Origin: an uncultured Pseudomonadota bacterium
GTDB lineage: Bacteria; Oederibacteriota; Muellerivitia; Muellerivitales; Muellerivitaceae
Direction: 5' to 3'
DNA: 64,000 nt
NCBI GenBank assembly: GCA_963843375.1
Contig: CAWJKT010000014.1
Span: 96,001-160,000, forward strand
In this document: positions 12,001-21,000 of the stretch, one piece after another
Numbering within the stretch: the stretch's first letter is position 1
Layout: each line of letters starts with the position of its first letter
Position numbers: made by a program

Positions 12001-15000
12001 CGAATGCCAAAATTGCCCCTTGGGAAAAACACGCCAAAAATTTGTTTTTGGAAGCGGCAGTCCCCGCGCTGAGGTCATGTTTGTAGGGGAAGCCCCAGGG
12101 GCGGATGAAGACGCCCAAGGTCTGCCATTCGTGGGTAAAGCCGGCCAACTGTTGACCAAGATCATCGAGTCGACCAAAATCTGGAAAAGATCCGATGTTT
12201 TTATCTGCAATGTCCTCAAGTGCCGTCCCCCTGGAAACCGGACACCCCAACCCGAAGAAGTGGAACAGTGTCGACCTTACTTGGAAGAACAAATCCGCAT
12301 TCTTAAGCCCAAATTCATCATGGCTTTGGGGGCCAGTGCGGCTCAGGCGCTTTTGAAAACTAAGGATTCGGTGGGAAAACTCCGCAATAAATGGCATGAT
12401 TTTAACGGAATTCAACTCCGGGTGACCTATCACCCAGCCGCCCTTTTAAGGTTCGACGGGTATAAGAAGGACGTCTGGGAGGATATGAAAGAATTGACAA
12501 CCAAGTATTTGGAAATAAAGAACGGTCAATAACTCGCCCTTTCTTGGAATTTAAACAAAAATATAACCTCTTCTAAAATAACGTTTTCAGTGGATTTTTA
12601 GTCAAGCCAAGGATGGGCTGAATCTTGGTATACTTTGCGCATGAAAAAGGCCTCTTTTCTTGGAGTTAAAGTACTTTCCCAACGATTAGGACGACTAGTT
12701 CCACTGTTCGTTTTTCCAATTCTGCTTACTTCCTCATGTTTTTTAACCATAGTGAAACAAGCCAATGCCGCTATTACCTTTGATGCGGCGGATTCCACCA
12801 GGGCCAATACGCAGAGTGTGACGTTTGACCACACGGTTAGTGGCCAAGAAACCTTGTTAATTCTCCAAGCGGATATCAGATATGGTTTCGGCGGGGCAGT
12901 TTCTGTCATCTCGGCGAATTATGGGGGGGTACCACTAACCCTTGTGCTTTCCGATCAGGATACGACATTTAATGACTTGGAGACTTGGTACCTGTTGTCT
13001 CCCGCAAGTGGTCCGAGCAGCGTCGTTGTAAACTTAACTGGAACCCCGACCGCCGGGAATTATGGAATCCTCAGTTACGATGGTGTTGATCAAACAACTC
13101 CGTTGGGAGTTACGTTTTTCGCCGCCAATGCCGCCAATACTTCGCAAACATTTAATGTCACCAGCACAACGGCCAATAGTGTTTTGCTTTCGAATTTTCT
13201 TTGGAATTCAAATTCCGTCAATATAAACGAATTTGGCGCGGGGCAAACCCAGAGATGGTCTGAAAGCAGTTCCCGTAGCTCAGAGGGAGACGATTTTTTT
13301 ACAACCACGGTCGGGTCGAATTCAATGAGTTATACTCTTTCCGGTTCCGTAGCTGCCGATGGTGAAATAGTTGAAATCATACCGGCTCCAACACAGACCC
13401 CGACGAATACCGCAACCAACACCACGACGGATACGGTTACGTCAACCCCGACGGTGACTCTCTCGCCCACAAGTACCCCGACGGATACGGCAAGCTATAC
13501 AACAACGGAAACGACGACGAATACGGCGACTTTGACCCCGACGGCGACACCTCAGCCGCGGCTGATTCTATCGTGGAATAACGAACCGGCGTCCCAGGCC
13601 TATTTATATAACCAGGCGAATGTGACAGGAATTCAGGTGGTACTGAAGGCGTTTGGACAGGAGCCGGTATCGGTAAGCCAACTGGCTTTTGGATTGGGTG
13701 GAACCCTGGGGTATACGGAAGTGTTAACAGGAACTGTGGCATTGTACCCGGATGCAGGGACGAATGAGACGTTGGGGGTTTATAACGGGGCACCCAGCCC
13801 GACACCGATTGCGACTGGAAGCTTTTCGGTCAACGGGTCAGTTACCTTTGGCGGATTGGCAAATTTAGCAGTGAATCCAGCAACGGGGCCCCAAACTCTG
13901 CTTTTGGTTTTTAGCCTCCAAGCCAATGGTGGAGAGACCTTTAACAATACGATTAGCCCTTCATCGATTGTGGCTGCGGGTGTAACGACGGGGACGCCTG
14001 CTTTGGTTTTGGGATCATTGATCAACGGAAATACGTTTACGGTCACGGGTCCCACGGCAACGCCAACCGCAACGCCAACGAATACGGCGACCAACACGGC
14101 AACCTTGACTGCGACGGTAACAGCGACGAACAGCCCGACTTTCACCACAACCCCGACCCCAACCAACACGCCGGTCAATCCCCCGGTAACGGTAGCTCTG
14201 TCGGTACCAACAGTAAGCCTGACAGTGATCCCGGGGACTGCCGGGGTGACGGTGATACAGTTGCAAGTGACCAACAATAGCGCAACTGAGGGAGTATCAC
14301 TGTTATCAATTGTTTTAGATGGTACCAGTTTTAACGACTCAGCCGGAATAGCTCAGGTAAATCTTTATGATTCAACGGGCTTGGTAACGAGCGGGACATT
14401 TAAGGCTTCGGGAGCGCCCTTGACTTTGGTTTTGGCCCCACTCGAAACCTTGGGGGCCTCGGGGTCGGCCACTGCGACACAATCCTTTGTGGTTACCTAT
14501 GATTTCTCTAACGACCAGGTAGCGACCAACTACAGTTTGGGGTTAGGCATCGGTAGTTTGACTGGTACCGGGGTTTTGAGTGGAAAGCCGATTACTGTTA
14601 CGGGATTGCCGCTGGGTGGAAACACAATCACTGTGGTTTTGCCGACCTCAACCCTCACCAATACAGCCACGAACAGCGCGACGAGTACGGCAACCCCTAC
14701 GGCGACCTTCACGACAACGGACACTCCCACGGATACGGCAAGCTATACAGCGACGGAAACAGCGACGAACACGACGACCTTAACGCCCACAGTGACGCCC
14801 CAATCCCGGTTGGTACTATCGTGGAATAACGAACCGGCGTCCCAGGCCTATTTTTACAATCAGGCCAATGTGACGGGAATCCAGGTGGTATTGAAGGCGC
14901 TTGGACAGGAGCCGGTTTCAGTGACCCAAATTTCCTTTGGATTGGGCGGAACGCTTTTGAGCGGGGAGGTAGTGACAGGAAGCGTGGCATTGTTCCCAGA

Positions 15001-18000: not shown

Positions 18001-21000
18001 TCAAAATTCACTGGGTGGTCCAGCGACTTTCCCGACGGCGATAACTTTGGATCTTTCGGCTACGACCACCGGCGATTACAATTTCTCGCTCACTCAGGGA
18101 GGGGGGGCGGTTACCTCCTGTACTCTCCCCTCTGGAACCTCAAGCCAAGTTGTCTATTACACGGGCTTTAAGGCGGAGGTTCAGTCCTTGAATGTGACCG
18201 CCCTTGCCGCCATCCCAACTCCCTCAGTTTCCCAGGCTGCGACTGTTTTCCCGGCTGCTTACAGCAAGTTGCAAGTGCTGTTTCCAAATCAAAGTTCGGA
18301 CCCTGGAAAACCTAACACCAATAATACGGGACGAATCGGCCTTCCCAATTCGGTCGCGTCTGGCAACCCCGTGACCGCCACCGTAAACGCTGTCGATACT
18401 TTCTTCAATCCCGTCACGGTCAATATCAGCGGTCATCCGGTGACATTTAAGACTACGGATGGAACTCCGCAGAACTCCGCGGTCTTTACATCCGACACGG
18501 TCAATGCCCCTATCATATTTATCAACCCTGGTCCCCAAACTTTGACTGCTGGTGATTCGGAGACCACTTTTACCGGAAATAGCGATCAAATTACGATCTT
18601 GCAAGGGACGAACAGCGACGAATTAAACGTCGTCCACGGCATGCCGAACCTGTCCACGGTCATCTTGGGCCAAACGGGCGTGGAGGTACTCACTTTCAAT
18701 TTGAATGTCGAGAACGGAACCCATAACATCAAAATCAACAACTTGACCATAAATGCCCTGGATCAGGCGGGACCCTCGGGGTCGGGGGTGACCCTTGATA
18801 CCGCTTTCGAATCCTTGATCCTGGAAGGGCCATCCACGGTTCTCTCCCAACCGATCACCTTGGACGTTTCAGGATCCGGTTCGACCTCCGCCGTATTCCC
18901 GGGTCCCATCACCCTAGTGAACGGTTCCTCTCTGCCCTTGACTCTGCTTGCTGATATCCTGCCCAACGCCACGGTCAATACAGTCCTTTTATCTCTAGGA
19001 CAAAATGGGATTTCCGCCAATGACTCAACCAGCGGTGTGACGGTTGTATCCACCTGCTTCGGTGATTCCACCTGTTTCCCAATGGATTCAAATCTGATGC
19101 TGTTTAGGACTGGTGACATCGCGAGCACCTATGGCAACTATCCCAACCCTTTCCACCCCGAAATGGGCGATACAACGATTGAGTTTAATCTGTCGACTCC
19201 CCTGTCCTATACCTTGGGAATTTATGACATCCTTGGGAGGAAAGTGAAAATTTTCCAGAGCAACGGTCCACAATCCGGACTTCAACAATTGTCATGGGAT
19301 GGAAAAAACGACGCCGGTGTTTATGTCTTGAGTGGGATTTACTATGCCCAATTGAACGTGAGCGGCAATAAATATCTTCTGAAAATAGCGGTGGTGAAAT
19401 AATGATCAAGGAACGCCGCGCGACTTTAGCTGGAATTCCGCTAAAGGCCCACTGTGGACATATCGCAGCTCTTTTCCTAGGTATGTTCACGTTTGCTGCC
19501 CTTTCCGCAACCATGGCACAGACTTTGAGTACGGGCGGGGTGGAATCTCCTTTTGAACTGGGAGGATCCGCTTGGGCCCAGGGAATGGGTGGGGCTGTCG
19601 CTGCGGTCTCGGGTTATGGGGATAGTTTTTTCGAGAATCCCGCGTCCCTCGCGACGGTCCAGGATCACGAAATCCTGACGTTCCACGCGCCCTTGTTCCT
19701 CGACACCCTTTATGATTCGGTTGGTTATGTCCAGCCAGTCGGCCGTAATACCAGTTTCGGTTTAGCTTTGAATCGATTGGGGGTTTCAAACATTTTGGAA
19801 ACCACCACCAACATCCAGGCCCTCTCCAACTTTTCTTTTGCGGAGTATGAGGGGCTTTTGGGTTATGGATTCCGCCCGTTACCGAATTTGGATTTTGGAG
19901 GCAACGTAAAATTCGTCTTTGAACAATTGGGAAGTTACCAGGGAAGCGGCGGAGGCTTGGATCTGGGCCTTTTGTATCACTTTTCCACTACCCGGGCGGA
20001 TTTTAATCTGGTCGGGGTGCGGAATATCACTCTGGGGTTCTCAGTTTCCAACGTTCTTCAACCGCAAACCAAGCTATTCCAACTGGCGGATAATCCGGCC
20101 CGTGTTTATCGTCCGGCCTTCGCTTACTATTATGAATTTCCTGGATCCCAAAGCGATTTGTGGGCAACGGTTGAGGGTGAAATTCCGGACAGCGGTGAAA
20201 AGCTCGTCCGCGGGGGGGTGCAATACGGATGGAAGAAAATGATTTTCGTCCGTGCGGGTTTTGATGGGGTGGGCCCAACTGCGGGTGCGGGATTACGTTA
20301 TTATGATTTTGAGTTTGATTACGCTTATGATCAGCAGGATTTGGGAGCCTTGAACCAGTTTTCTCTGACTTACCGTTTTGGACATTATGTGGACCCGCTG
20401 GAAGCTCAAAAAATTGACCTGTTAAAATGGGTGGCCCAAAGTTACACCAAAGACAATGATTTTGACCCGGCCATCAAAGCCTGGCAAAACGTACAGCGTG
20501 AATTTCCAGACGACACGGAAGCTTCCCGGGCCATCCGGGAAATCCAACAACAACGAAAAGACCTGGTTCAGGATCAACTCAAGATGGCGCGATCTGCCAT
20601 GAACCGGGGCGATTTTGAGAAGGCGGTTCCGCTGATTGCCAAGGTGTTAAGTTTGGACCCGGGAATTCCGAGGCCAAAGCGCTCTTAAGCCAAGTCGATA
20701 AAAAAACGTTGATTTCGACCAATTATACCCGCGGGGTTGAGGCTTATAGCCGTGAAGATTATGGCTTGGCGATTCAATACTTGGAAATGGTCTACGAAGT
20801 GGATACCCATTACCGGGATGTCAATTTCCTTTATCACGACGCCCAAAGCCATTATCTTCCCCTGGAGTCCATGCCAAAGGATTTAACCGAGCTTTATGCC
20901 CAGGGAGTGAATTACTATATAAGCGGTGATTACCAGAAAGCCATTGAGTCTTGGGAGAAAGTGTTGGACAAGAGCCCCAAAAATTTTCTTGTTCGTCGTA

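Follow-up and report, generated by a model that had tools for sequence, protein, structure and literature searches.

In the genome of an uncultured bacterium of the phylum Oederibacteriota, genes for PorV/PorQ-like outer-membrane barrels repeatedly follow a gene whose product ends in a type IX-style C-terminal domain (CTD), an arrangement that is undescribed for this type of barrel and tail. We suggest, with a probability of roughly 55%, that each paired barrel, PorV/PorQ-like, is reserved for the CTD protein encoded upstream of it and anchors that protein non-covalently at the cell surface, comparable to PorQ-PorZ or SprF-SprB, and that some of these barrels would be wired to signalling in the manner of PorA-PorY. 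The cargo would pass the inner membrane via Sec and the outer membrane via a distant SprA-like translocon of this genome; the β-sandwich CTD at its C-terminus would then dock on the outward-facing loops of its own barrel, which would hold it as PorQ holds PorZ, PorV holds PorU and SprF/PorP hold type-B cargo.

The pair named in the survey's finding lies as claimed in the window, by which we mean the whole 64,000-nucleotide stretch analysed. The cargo gene, for protein P0001, occupies 12641..19402 on the forward strand (ORF start 12635 or 12641; 2253-2255 aa), and its TAA stop shares one base with the ATG of the barrel gene, for protein P0002, at 19402..20688 (+), in the motif TAATG. P0001 begins with a signal-peptide-like segment, followed by Thr/Pro/Asn-rich linkers, repeated domains and the CTD; apart from a weak Por_Secre_tail match (E 0.078), no Pfam or NCBIfam family was found in it. 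The CTD, its last 104 aa (19088..19399, +), is FlgD_ig or T9SS-CTD-like and gives a match to the CTD portion of the PorU profile (model positions 998-1079, E 8.7e-8). P0002, with matches to NF033709, PorQ and TPR Pfam models, comprises 14 strands (aa 88-328, nt 19663-20385) and, after them, the beginning of a TPR tail on the periplasmic side. Its called length of 428 aa is incomplete, as a one-base frame shift near 20661-20709 splits the gene in this assembly; the remainder of the tail is found in another frame as a 126-aa ORF with a TPR_2 match (20709..21089, +). The orthologue at L043, a locus in another genome, is a single ORF of 563 aa, of which residues 16-428 match P0002 (77% identity) and residues 438-563 match the tail ORF (79%).

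The start of the next gene (21086..23479, +) overlaps the tail ORF by 4 nt and encodes a 797-aa membrane sensor made up, in this order, of HATPase_c_2, two hydrophobic segments (170-188 and 334-352, with ~145 aa between them), HAMP, SpoIIE/PP2C phosphatase and HTH (domains by Pfam). It is followed by a STAS-domain protein of the anti-sigma-antagonist type (23538..23900, +; domain match), which is the partner-switching partner of the PP2C sensor, and by a 379-aa TPR protein (23940..25079, +) that closes the conserved run and has an ORF of equal size at the same position at L043. There, cargo, barrel, sensor and the following genes stand in unchanged order, with a 4-nt overlap between cargo and barrel; the cargo orthologue is 2124 aa long, and the aligned pieces shown are 43-76% identical. 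If the barrel is an anchor, the 2253-aa repeat protein would be displayed on P0002, and the periplasmic TPR tail of P0002 may reach towards the sensor and the STAS protein, next in the conserved run.

Three cargo/barrel pairs are present in the window (8849-10627/10624-11649, 12635-19402/19402-20688 and 34873-36057/36054-37904). In the first of these, the cargo is a 592-aa subtilase of the S8 family whose prodomain is of the fervidolysin type and which ends in a CTD (8849..10627, +; Peptidase_S8 E 4e-50; FlgD_ig 29.1 bits, CHU_C 27.3 bits, CTD family E 3.3e-19), and its stop overlaps by 4 nt a 341-aa barrel that has no tail (10624..11649, +). The third consists of a secreted 394-aa protein containing a T/P-rich linker besides its CTD (34873..36057, +; FlgD_ig 26.8 bits) and, again with a 4-nt overlap, a 616-aa barrel with a long TPR tail (36054..37904, +), the sole PorP-model match in the genome (weak, E 9.6e-8). 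The stop of this barrel gene overlaps by 4 nt a HAMP-HisKA-HATPase_c sensor histidine kinase (37901..39313, +), downstream of which lies an OmpR-type response regulator (39410..40108, +).

A census of all ORFs of at least 60 aa in the genome (17,252), using jackhmmer seeded with the barrel domain and with the last 95 aa of P0001, gave 19 barrels of full length along with 3 fragments, and 87 ORFs with the CTD at their end; the earlier counts of 15 barrels, 76 CTD genes and ten pairs were too low. A CTD ORF lies directly upstream on the same strand of 11 of the 19 barrels, with a stop/start overlap of 1 or 4 nt in eight of them (gaps of -1 in three cases, -4 in five, and 19, 53 and 273 nt); the other 8 are without an upstream CTD gene, and beyond the 11 pairs, barrel C15_34105 is the second of a tandem. 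In a crude gene set (3816 genes) that retained 81 of the 87 CTD ORFs, a CTD gene was the 5' neighbor of 9 of the 19 barrels, against a mean expectation of 0.40 and no more than 4 in any of 10,000 permutations, so that linkage far above chance, as the survey had stated, is upheld. The paired cargos range from the subtilase and a PA14+CBM9 protein to an fn3-rich protein, giant repeat proteins and 130-aa proteins made up of a signal peptide and a CTD only; the element common to them is the CTD. About 76 CTD proteins are unpaired, and a 33-member clade of similar unpaired CTDs includes none of the 9 paired secreted ones. The barrel tails are of TPR or fn3 type or, in C3_152914, an OmpA peptidoglycan-binding domain, in this case with a FlgD_ig domain also fused in cis.

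The paired-barrel trait is phylum-wide. All 99 phylum genomes have at least 10 barrel matches, a fuller counting found 20-44 in each of five genomes, and 13 of the 29 best barrel loci from other genomes are paired. In two distant genomes, G032 and G074, a CTD gene lies upstream of 53 of 73 barrels (with an exact 4-nt overlap in 20 of the 53) and just downstream of only 7, with 20 of the 73 having no upstream CTD gene. Within these genomes, distances between barrels correlate with distances between their CTDs (r 0.39 in G032 and 0.44 in G074, values that none of 5000 permutations reached); in the genome studied here they are uncorrelated (r -0.06, p 0.64, 11 pairs). The G032 barrel closest to P0002, L059, has the partner CTD nearest to that of P0001 (rank 1 of 29); it is likewise followed by the sensor and STAS genes, the sensor there carrying an sCache domain.

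NF033709 (PorV_fam) matched above cut-off at 12 loci in a six-frame search of the genome; P0002 scores below it (82.7 bits, cut-off 90) and well below that of PorQ (71.2 bits, cut-off 220). The AF2 model of P0002 has 14 strands and C-terminal helices (pLDDT 84.6), and the closest structures to it in the PDB are PorV chains, 8gl6_F (E 1.1e-12) and 6h3i_F (E 4.6e-11), with TM-scores by target of 0.64 and 0.66 at 16-17% identity. Prediction of the complex of P0002 with the CTD of P0001 gave ipSAE values of 0.88, 0.89 and 0.88, with a partner pLDDT of 86 and at least 96% of contacts shared; the survey's value of 0.88 is thereby reproduced, and the best of three controls reached 0.01. In the benchmark, 116 of 157 solved complexes and 2 of 215 mismatched pairs attained the ipSAE mark, although PorV-CTD complexes have been solved (8gl6), so that the score may reflect likeness only and not specificity for the cognate barrel. 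The CTD interface is predicted on loops 98-102, 126-138, 174-179, 223-232, 264-266 and 312-314, which in the model are extracellular if the N-terminus is periplasmic. Taken with the linkage, its direction and its conservation in orthologues, this predicted contact and the PorV fold support the earlier view of dedicated barrels, each assigned to the CTD gene that precedes it.

The description of the cargo as type-A-like stands on weaker ground. Only two of the 11 partner CTDs pass type-A models and most of the 11 match FlgD_ig; the CTD of P0001 scores 13.7 bits against Por_Secre_tail (cut-off 27) and has no TIGR04183 match. None of the 11 matches a type-B NCBIfam model; two touch the type-B Pfam model CHU_C, one of them just reaching the cut-off. 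As for the machinery, the SprA-like gene gives partial matches only, below cut-off (118.5 vs 200 bits), and PorU was above cut-off in none of the 61 genomes searched. Some genomes of other families do show weak matches to the PorU peptidase body, among them G098 (E 1.3e-17 over model positions 360-731), so a distant sortase may exist in those genomes.

The lack of a detectable PorU-type sortase means that the CTD is probably left uncut, in which case the barrel would act as an anchor; as the accessible text of PMC10202324 describes, the CTDs of PorZ and PorU are held uncleaved at the surface, bound to PorQ and PorV, respectively. An unlikely alternative, though one to be taken seriously, is that the barrels are dedicated shuttles, one carrier per cargo, each docking on the SprA-like translocon, pulling the cargo out by its CTD and releasing it, the part that PorV plays for type-A cargo in Bacteroidota. 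The fold and the predicted contact between loops and CTD match PorV, which draws substrates out by their CTD according to the available part of PMC10994853, and cognate PorP/SprF shuttles are described in that of PMC12618676 as required for secretion of type-B cargo. A recycling carrier, however, has no need of one-to-one translational coupling, a PorU-like enzyme to free the cargo was above cut-off in none of the 61 genomes, and the periplasmic TPR, fn3 and OmpA tails suggest barrels that are fixed rather than mobile. The failure to detect PorU, the coupling, which fits a 1:1 complex, and the tails together indirectly suggest anchors over shuttles, as do the cis-fused FlgD_ig domain of C3_152914 and the position of the paired secreted CTDs outside the 33-member clade.

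All six TPR-tailed barrels in this genome, P0002 included, adjoin signalling genes: four an ECF sigma factor and a CTD-ending anti-sigma factor, one a HAMP kinase and a response regulator, and one the PP2C sensor and STAS protein. This link is new here; the survey had treated the anti-sigma cases as a side issue of two pairs. It could be argued that TPR-tailed pairs are mainly trans-envelope signalling units, which report the state of surface proteins or of export to inner-membrane sensors with the CTD as ligand, and we consider this doubtful. In its favor, the run of cargo, barrel, PP2C and STAS recurs at L043, L059 and L090, and L067 has barrel, STAS and PP2C (the sensor gene follows the barrel at the first three, and a STAS gene follows at L059, L067 and L090); the four ORFs in the genome that match an anti-sigma N-terminal profile all sit at these barrels, the profile being built from the same four; and in P. 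gingivalis the CTD of PorA binds PorY at its periplasmic portion and turns on PorXY-SigP, as stated in the available text of PMC12152298. Against it, the four sigma modules, being paralogues, do not count as independent cases; in G032 and G074, of 11 barrels whose TPR tail is similar only 4 have a signalling gene downstream (Pfam), and of 34 long-tailed barrels 8 do (local profiles); and none of the short and fn3-tailed paired barrels has one.

That the barrel itself brings its neighbor's CTD protein to the surface in a two-partner export system without the SprA-like translocon is very improbable, even if one-to-one gene coupling is typical for such systems: the model shows a barrel of the FadL/PorV type with 14 strands, and barrels of this kind are too narrow to pass folded proteins that can exceed 2000 aa (its lumen may be open or closed, the first 47 residues, ahead of the strands, being of low confidence), and the genome retains a SprA-like gene, with the unpaired CTD proteins needing a general route. 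There is equally little to recommend FadL-type importers that take up hydrophobic or other small substrates and share operons with the secreted enzymes making them; TodX and FadL are the next structural matches of P0002 after PorV, some clusters stand among glycoside hydrolases, and several paralogues match UPF0164, a T. pallidum FadL-like family read as importers, three members of which have a TPR-bearing tail (both in the accessible part of PMC8407342), but the upstream partners have in common the CTD and not an enzyme class (some being CTD-only proteins or anti-sigma factors), the predicted contact is with the CTD itself, and the linkage is directional and translationally coupled (53 upstream vs 7 downstream in G032 and G074).

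Our preferred reading of private anchors is closest to the attachment complex of P. gingivalis, where, in the text available of PMC10202324, PorQ and PorV each hold a particular CTD protein with an uncleaved CTD at the surface; P0002 matches the PorV_fam and PorQ models and is closest to PorV in fold. P0002 and its paralogues are nevertheless not equivalogs (71.2 bits for PorQ, cut-off 220), two unlinked pairs contrast with 11 gene-coupled ones here, PorZ and PorU are parts of the secretion machine whereas the cargos here are ordinary surface proteins and enzymes, and here PorU is undetectable and many barrels have periplasmic tails. PorV of F. johnsoniae (6h3i, 8gl6), the general type-A carrier, is the best structural match of P0002, and the predicted placing of the CTD on the extracellular loops agrees with the experimental structure of a substrate complex (PMC10994853, in the part available). 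In Bacteroidota a single PorV recognizes the type-A CTDs, as stated in the accessible text of PMC12618676; here there are many paralogues per genome, each with its own cargo, and C-terminal periplasmic TPR, fn3 or OmpA domains, and GldM or the GldLM motor was not found in a search that had no positive control, in a genome that is 80% complete. The UPF0164 proteins of T. pallidum (TP0548, TP0859, TP0865) likewise combine 14 barrel strands with a C-terminal helical extension that bears TPR motifs and is presumed to be periplasmic (PMC8407342); several paralogues here score above the UPF0164 cut-off and P0002 below it (17.2 vs 21.4 bits), but those proteins are read as nutrient importers and have no reported CTD partner. 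UPF0164 clusters were also among the nearest look-alikes in the protein atlas, which we note as a lead only.

In the type-B systems, SprB-SprF of F. johnsoniae and PG1035-PorP of P. gingivalis, the cargo gene is likewise linked to its own barrel gene, and the barrel is required for secretion and targeting of that cargo, according to the available parts of PMC12618676 and PMC9143113. The barrels here differ in matching PorV/PorQ models rather than PorP/SprF (one weak TIGR03519 match in the genome), and their partner CTDs in having no type-B NCBIfam match, with two touching Pfam CHU_C. PorA of P. gingivalis, finally, is a small CTD protein that binds PorV and whose CTD activates, in the periplasm, a sensor kinase, as described in the accessible text of PMC12152298 and PMC7712824. 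In place of the PorA-PorV-PorY-PorX-SigP pathway, the present genome co-encodes CTD proteins, some of them just a signal peptide and a CTD, and PorV-like barrels with kinases, a PP2C sensor or ECF sigma/anti-sigma factors; here a single operon fixes the parts together, the barrel carries a TPR tail, and the anti-sigma factor of four modules has a CTD at its own end.

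Across the genome (4.05 Mb in 32 contigs, 80% complete), we searched the complete set of 17,252 ORFs with 60 aa or more by jackhmmer, using as seeds the barrel domain of P0002, the PorV/PorQ-like barrel of the named pair, and the last 95 aa of its cargo P0001, which end in a T9SS-style, FlgD_ig-like tail domain (CTD). The searches returned 19 full-length barrels plus 3 fragments, and 87 CTD-ending ORFs. For 11 of the 19 barrels a CTD ORF lies directly 5' on the same strand, at a distance of -1 nt (three pairs), -4 nt (five pairs), 19, 53 or 273 nt; a twelfth barrel, C15_34105 (named, as others below, by contig and start), is the second member of a tandem. 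The survey's finding of 15 barrels, 10 pairs and 76 CTDs was therefore too low in its counts and sound in its observation: in a crude non-overlapping set of 3816 genes, where two short CTD ORFs are lost, a CTD gene is the 5' neighbour of 9 of the 19 barrels, against a mean of 0.40 and a maximum of 4 in 10,000 shuffles of the CTD labels, and the coupling is thus real. A single barrel for all type-A cargo is not what this genome holds, with 19 paralogues of which 11 are gene-coupled to one cargo each.

Three pairs lie in the window: a subtilase (8849-10627) with its barrel (10624-11649), the named pair itself, and a 394-aa CTD protein (34873-36057) with a TPR-tailed barrel (36054-37904). CTD-ending proteins without a barrel neighbour also occur there, namely one of 806 aa (29201-31621, minus strand), a DUF7948/SBBP protein of 952 aa (43624-46482, minus strand) and a DUF11 protein of 1130 aa (47084-50476, plus strand). 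At 58919-64000 (plus strand) a giant ORF of at least 1694 aa crosses the window end. Rich in Gly, Ser and Asn, its product has a signal-like start, then GGxGG-type repeats, and no Pfam match; the ORF explains why G+C rises to 64% in the last 4 kb from about 49% elsewhere. Genome-wide, the barrel tails carry TPR repeats in six cases (P0002 included) and fn3 in three, and several barrels have no tail. An ORF of 797 aa, C3_152914 (C3:152914-155307; locus L011:3915-6305, plus strand), combines a PorV-like barrel with FlgD_ig, Big_13 and OmpA domains, so that a CTD-like domain is fused in cis to a barrel with a peptidoglycan-binding end.

The cargo of the named pair, P0001 (ORF 12635/12641-19402, plus strand, 2253 aa), starts with a signal-peptide-like segment and contains repeated domains and long linkers rich in Thr, Pro and Asn; its C-terminal end reads ...WDGKNDAGVYVLSGIYYAQLNVSGNKYLLKIAVVK. 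Its stop codon TAA has one base in common with the ATG of P0002, in the sequence TAATG. Within the linkers (window 12641-19402) there are 120-nt and 84-nt tandem repeats, and judged by eye a few hundred residues of the protein are also duplicated internally in near-identical form. The tail falls short of the type-A CTD cut-offs (TIGR04183 / PF18962): the sole family match of P0001 is Por_Secre_tail at E 0.078, with 13.7 bits on PF18962 (cut-off 27), and TIGR04183 gives no match in the protein; a match of the tail to the PorU model, at E 8.7e-8, lies in that model's CTD part.

This bears on the description of the tails as type-A-like, which is accurate only in part: two of the 11 partners exceed the type-A cut-offs, and the other nine, P0001 among them, do not. 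The two that pass both Por_Secre_tail and TIGR04183 are a PA14+CBM9 protein (C12_8244) and a 130-aa protein (C16_26473). FlgD_ig is the commonest Pfam match among the partner CTDs, at or above cut-off in three and just under it in others; CHU_C is reached among partners by the subtilase only, and barely (27.3 bits, cut-off 27), and 3 of the 11 have no match to any model. A tree built from the 87 CTDs groups 33 unpaired and similar sequences in one clade (support 97/79), in which none of the 9 paired secreted CTDs falls; the paired ones sit on long separate branches. Judged from the sequences, this fits an arrangement in which a common tail would use a general carrier and odd tails would use private barrels. 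Candidates for the general carrier are C15_34105 and C3_37498 (PorV_fam 171 bits, Pfam PorV 32.9 bits). The latter, the best PorV match of the genome, has no CTD neighbour; it overlaps the uvrA stop by 4 nt (L003:7195-14533, plus strand, on C3), and lptF/G-like and LptD_N-bearing genes lie upstream of it.

The barrel P0002 (19402-20688, plus strand, 428 aa, with TPR repeats beyond residue 340) scores 82.7 bits (E 3.6e-23) on the PorV/PorQ family NF033709, under the curated cut-off of 90, which 12 barrel loci of the genome exceed in a six-frame search. Neither the PorQ equivalog NF033711 (71.2 bits, cut-off 220) nor the PorV2 equivalog NF052325 (55.3 bits, cut-off 325) applies to it, and the top PorVQ2 match of the genome is 113.6 bits. 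An AlphaFold2 model built on an alignment of 93 barrel sequences (A2) reached a pLDDT of 84.6 and a pTM of 0.73, and shows 14 strands (residues 88-328) followed by four helices (332-418). In Foldseek its top matches are the PorV chains of the F. johnsoniae translocon, 8gl6_F (E 1.1e-12, TM-score by target 0.64) and 6h3i_F (E 4.6e-11, TM-score by target 0.66), with TodX and FadL ranking behind; as modelled, P0002 is a 14-strand FadL-type barrel with PorV as the closest structure. The model also has the UPF0164-type architecture of a barrel with a C-terminal helical TPR extension; on that family (PF03687) P0002 scores 17.2 bits, under the cut-off of 21.4, which is passed by the paralogues on C28 (28.3 bits), C4_270175 (35.1) and C3_125240 (37.2). 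Since outer-membrane barrels usually have both termini in the periplasm, the TPR tail of P0002 would be periplasmic.

The tail continues in a second ORF of 126 aa (20709-21089, plus strand), 79% identical to the end of the orthologue in locus L043, where the barrel is a single ORF of 563 aa; a one-base frame shift within 20661-20709 splits the gene here into 428 and 126 aa. A run of seven A lies at 20700-20707, and the frames of the barrel gene seem to diverge before it. Two more genes of the window appear to be split, LMF1 into adjacent ORFs of 338 and 184 aa (33183-34705, minus strand) and an M16 peptidase into adjacent ORFs of 355 and 232 aa (54933-56619, plus strand), which makes an indel error of the assembly plausible for the barrel gene as well.

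For the contact between cargo and barrel, residues 36-340 of P0002 (alignment A2) and the C-terminal 104 aa of P0001 (alignment A3, 65 partner CTDs) were modelled together. The predicted complex scored ipSAE 0.88, 0.89 and 0.88, against 0.01 for the best of 3 controls, with a partner pLDDT of 86 and at least 96% of contacts shared; of 157 solved complexes 116 reach the mark, as do 2 of 215 mismatched pairs. The predicted interface comprises extracellular turns (residues 98-102, 126-138, 174-179, 223-232, 264-266 and 312-314) and an N-terminal segment (42-53); passages of PMC10994853 describe PorV as holding substrate CTDs likewise, by its extracellular turns. Because a PorV-CTD complex is already solved, the score may reflect likeness only, and it says nothing on specificity for the cognate barrel.

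The arrangement extends through the phylum. Using a profile of the 19 barrel domains (A1, matches counted at E <=1e-10), we found at least 10 barrel matches in each of the 99 phylum genomes and at least 24 in most, and the full match lists for five genomes hold 20, 24, 36, 38 and 44. A CTD-ending ORF lies directly 5' in 13 of the 29 best-scoring barrel loci from other genomes, and the 16 unpaired ones include all 12 of the short barrel forms (313-324 aa) in that sample. In G032 and G074, two nearly complete genomes from other families, all 73 listed barrel loci were taken; a CTD gene lies upstream of 53 (29 of the 38 in G032, 24 of the 35 in G074), in 20 of these cases with an exact 4-nt overlap, while a CTD gene starts within 700 nt downstream of only 7 of the 73. 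The partner proteins of these two genomes range from 131 aa to more than 1900 aa. The divergence of barrels and of CTDs is correlated (r 0.39 in G032 and 0.44 in G074, reached in 0 of 5000 permutations each), from which it follows that pairs multiply and diverge together; among the 11 old pairs of the genome studied, co-divergence gave no signal (r -0.06).

The P0001/P0002 pair is conserved within a longer gene run. In L043, from the same genus, a 2124-aa cargo is followed by a barrel 77% identical to P0002 (4-nt overlap) and by genes of 800, 146 and 379 aa. The G032 barrel nearest to P0002 (locus L059) has the CTD nearest to that of P0001 (rank 1 of 29), and behind it come the same sensor gene as behind P0002 and a STAS gene. 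A related-locus search from P0002 alone returned two loci, both from the same phylum (their coordinates match genomes G054 and G093), and a protein atlas provided leads to barrel+TPR look-alikes labelled Zixibacteria, Calditrichota, Eiseniibacteriota, Elusimicrobiota and Spirochaetota.

What the paired barrels do with their cargo depends in part on the export machinery. The SprA model gives partial matches at C15:110969-114545, at best 118.5 bits against a cut-off of 200; GldM has no match in this 80%-complete genome, nor in the control genomes, so that the negative says nothing about a motor. PorU (NF033707) is over its cut-off in none of 61 genomes (60 at least 90% complete, and the one studied). 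Nearly all matches to its model, including all 17 of this genome, lie in the CTD part of the model itself (positions 940-1095), and a few genomes of other families have weak matches to the peptidase body. As no sortase is detectable, the CTD is probably kept on the protein, for which there is a precedent: passages of PMC10202324 describe the CTD of PorZ as retained on PorQ and that of PorU on PorV. A shuttle would release its cargo, and an anchor would hold it at the surface by the uncut CTD; given the lack of a detectable sortase, the 1:1 translational coupling and the fixed-looking periplasmic tails, we prefer, by inference, the role of anchor for the paired barrels. If they are anchors, they would amount to a general means of building a protein coat on the cell surface without a sortase, and PorQ-PorZ and PorV-PorU might be remnants of a wider principle.

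The TPR-tailed barrels have neighbours of a particular kind. In Pfam scans of the barrel loci, signal-transduction genes adjoin all six in the genome studied. Downstream of P0002, genes encode in turn a 797-aa sensor (HATPase_c_2, two hydrophobic segments, HAMP, SpoIIE/PP2C, HTH), a STAS protein and a TPR protein; the sensor's loop at residues 189-333 or so, which would be periplasmic, is an sCache domain in L059. Behind the barrel at 36054-37904 lie the gene of a HAMP histidine kinase, with a 4-nt overlap, and that of an OmpR-type regulator. On C6, C11, C12 and C16 the barrels share their clusters with an ECF sigma factor and a small anti-sigma-like protein, which consists of about 60 N-terminal residues, one membrane segment, a Pro-rich linker and, at its end, a CTD of the same kind. 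A profile of the anti-sigma N-terminus, built from the four ORFs at these barrels, matches only those four in the genome. In the C12 and C16 clusters a secreted CTD protein lies directly 5' of the barrel, on C16 just a signal peptide and a CTD.

Some of these loci have further features. The sigma/anti-sigma/barrel module on C11 (locus L005, C11:283000-300000) lies amid CTD-bearing polysaccharide enzymes (GH5, GH8 and a PL4-like lyase) and a DUF11 protein; the CTD of the latter and that of the C12 partner are sisters. On C6 (L001:4448-6403, minus strand; C6:201444-203402) a stop-free frame of 652 aa joins a flagellar hook/rod C-terminal end, an ECF sigma factor, an anti-sigma-like segment and a CTD, and is either a true fusion or the result of lost stop codons. 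In G074 the gene behind one TPR-tailed barrel encodes a FliG-like protein, and MotA/ExbB and MotB/OmpA come next (L077:9085-12331, minus strand), a possible barrel-linked motor.

As a general rule the link between TPR tail and signalling does not stand. Against the 6 of 6 in the genome studied, G032 and G074 have 11 barrels with a comparable TPR tail, and by Pfam a signalling gene lies downstream of 4 of them: PP2C+STAS in L059, L067 and L090 and an HD-GYP-type protein in L056. With local profiles, signalling neighbours in the same two genomes number 8 among the 34 long-tailed barrels and 1 among the 39 short ones. Tentatively, and at a probability of roughly three in ten, we propose an undescribed route of cell-surface signalling, made from T9SS parts and spread over several little-known phyla, whose outer-membrane half would be a TPR-tailed barrel plugged by a CTD protein. 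The CTD protein would plug the barrel from outside, and the barrel tail would relay the occupancy or state of this surface protein to inner-membrane partners, which could be an anti-sigma factor that itself ends in such a CTD, a HAMP kinase or a partner-switching sensor of the PP2C/STAS kind. Such a route would be functionally comparable to FecA-FecR-FecI. The closest published parallel to the signalling neighbourhoods is PorA of P. gingivalis, described in PMC12152298 and PMC7712824 as a small cargo whose CTD binds both PorV and the periplasmic part of the kinase PorY. Proteins of 130-133 aa with a signal peptide and a CTD only, directly 5' of barrels (L008:6474-6863, plus strand; L081; L090), resemble PorA. 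With its sigma, kinase and PP2C modules, the TPR-tailed subclass offers a testable route by which a diderm cell might sense its surface proteins, and it may bear on the unexplained TPR-tailed FadL-like proteins of spirochaetes.

The current picture of the T9SS rests on Bacteroidota. Outside that model set, the genomes of a whole phylum each keep between 10 and more than 40 PorV-like barrels, most of which are translationally coupled to one CTD protein; the pairs provide many natural cognate CTD-barrel couples for the study of CTD recognition. Full-text literature searches on PorV paralogues or PorV-like barrels tied to type-A cargo, and on the T9SS outside Bacteroidota, returned no account of this arrangement. 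The separate elements have precedents. In Bacteroidota, one PorV carries all type-A cargo and private PorP/SprF barrels are found for type-B cargo only, and PMC12618676 describes a cargo gene followed by its own barrel for type-B CTDs; one CTD protein held by one PorV/PorQ-type barrel is known from PorQ-PorZ, according to passages of PMC10202324. The pairs reported here resemble the type-B systems in the linkage between each cargo gene and the gene of its barrel. They differ in that the barrels are PorV/PorQ-like (the PorP/SprF model TIGR03519 has no match on P0002 and one weak match in the genome, E 9.6e-8, on the barrel at window 36054) and that the tails are FlgD_ig or type-A-like. Compared with the known systems, they also stand out by the lack of a detectable PorU sortase, by the periplasmic barrel tails, by a phylum outside Bacteroidota, and by their scale, with 11 pairs in the genome studied and 24-29 in G032 and G074.
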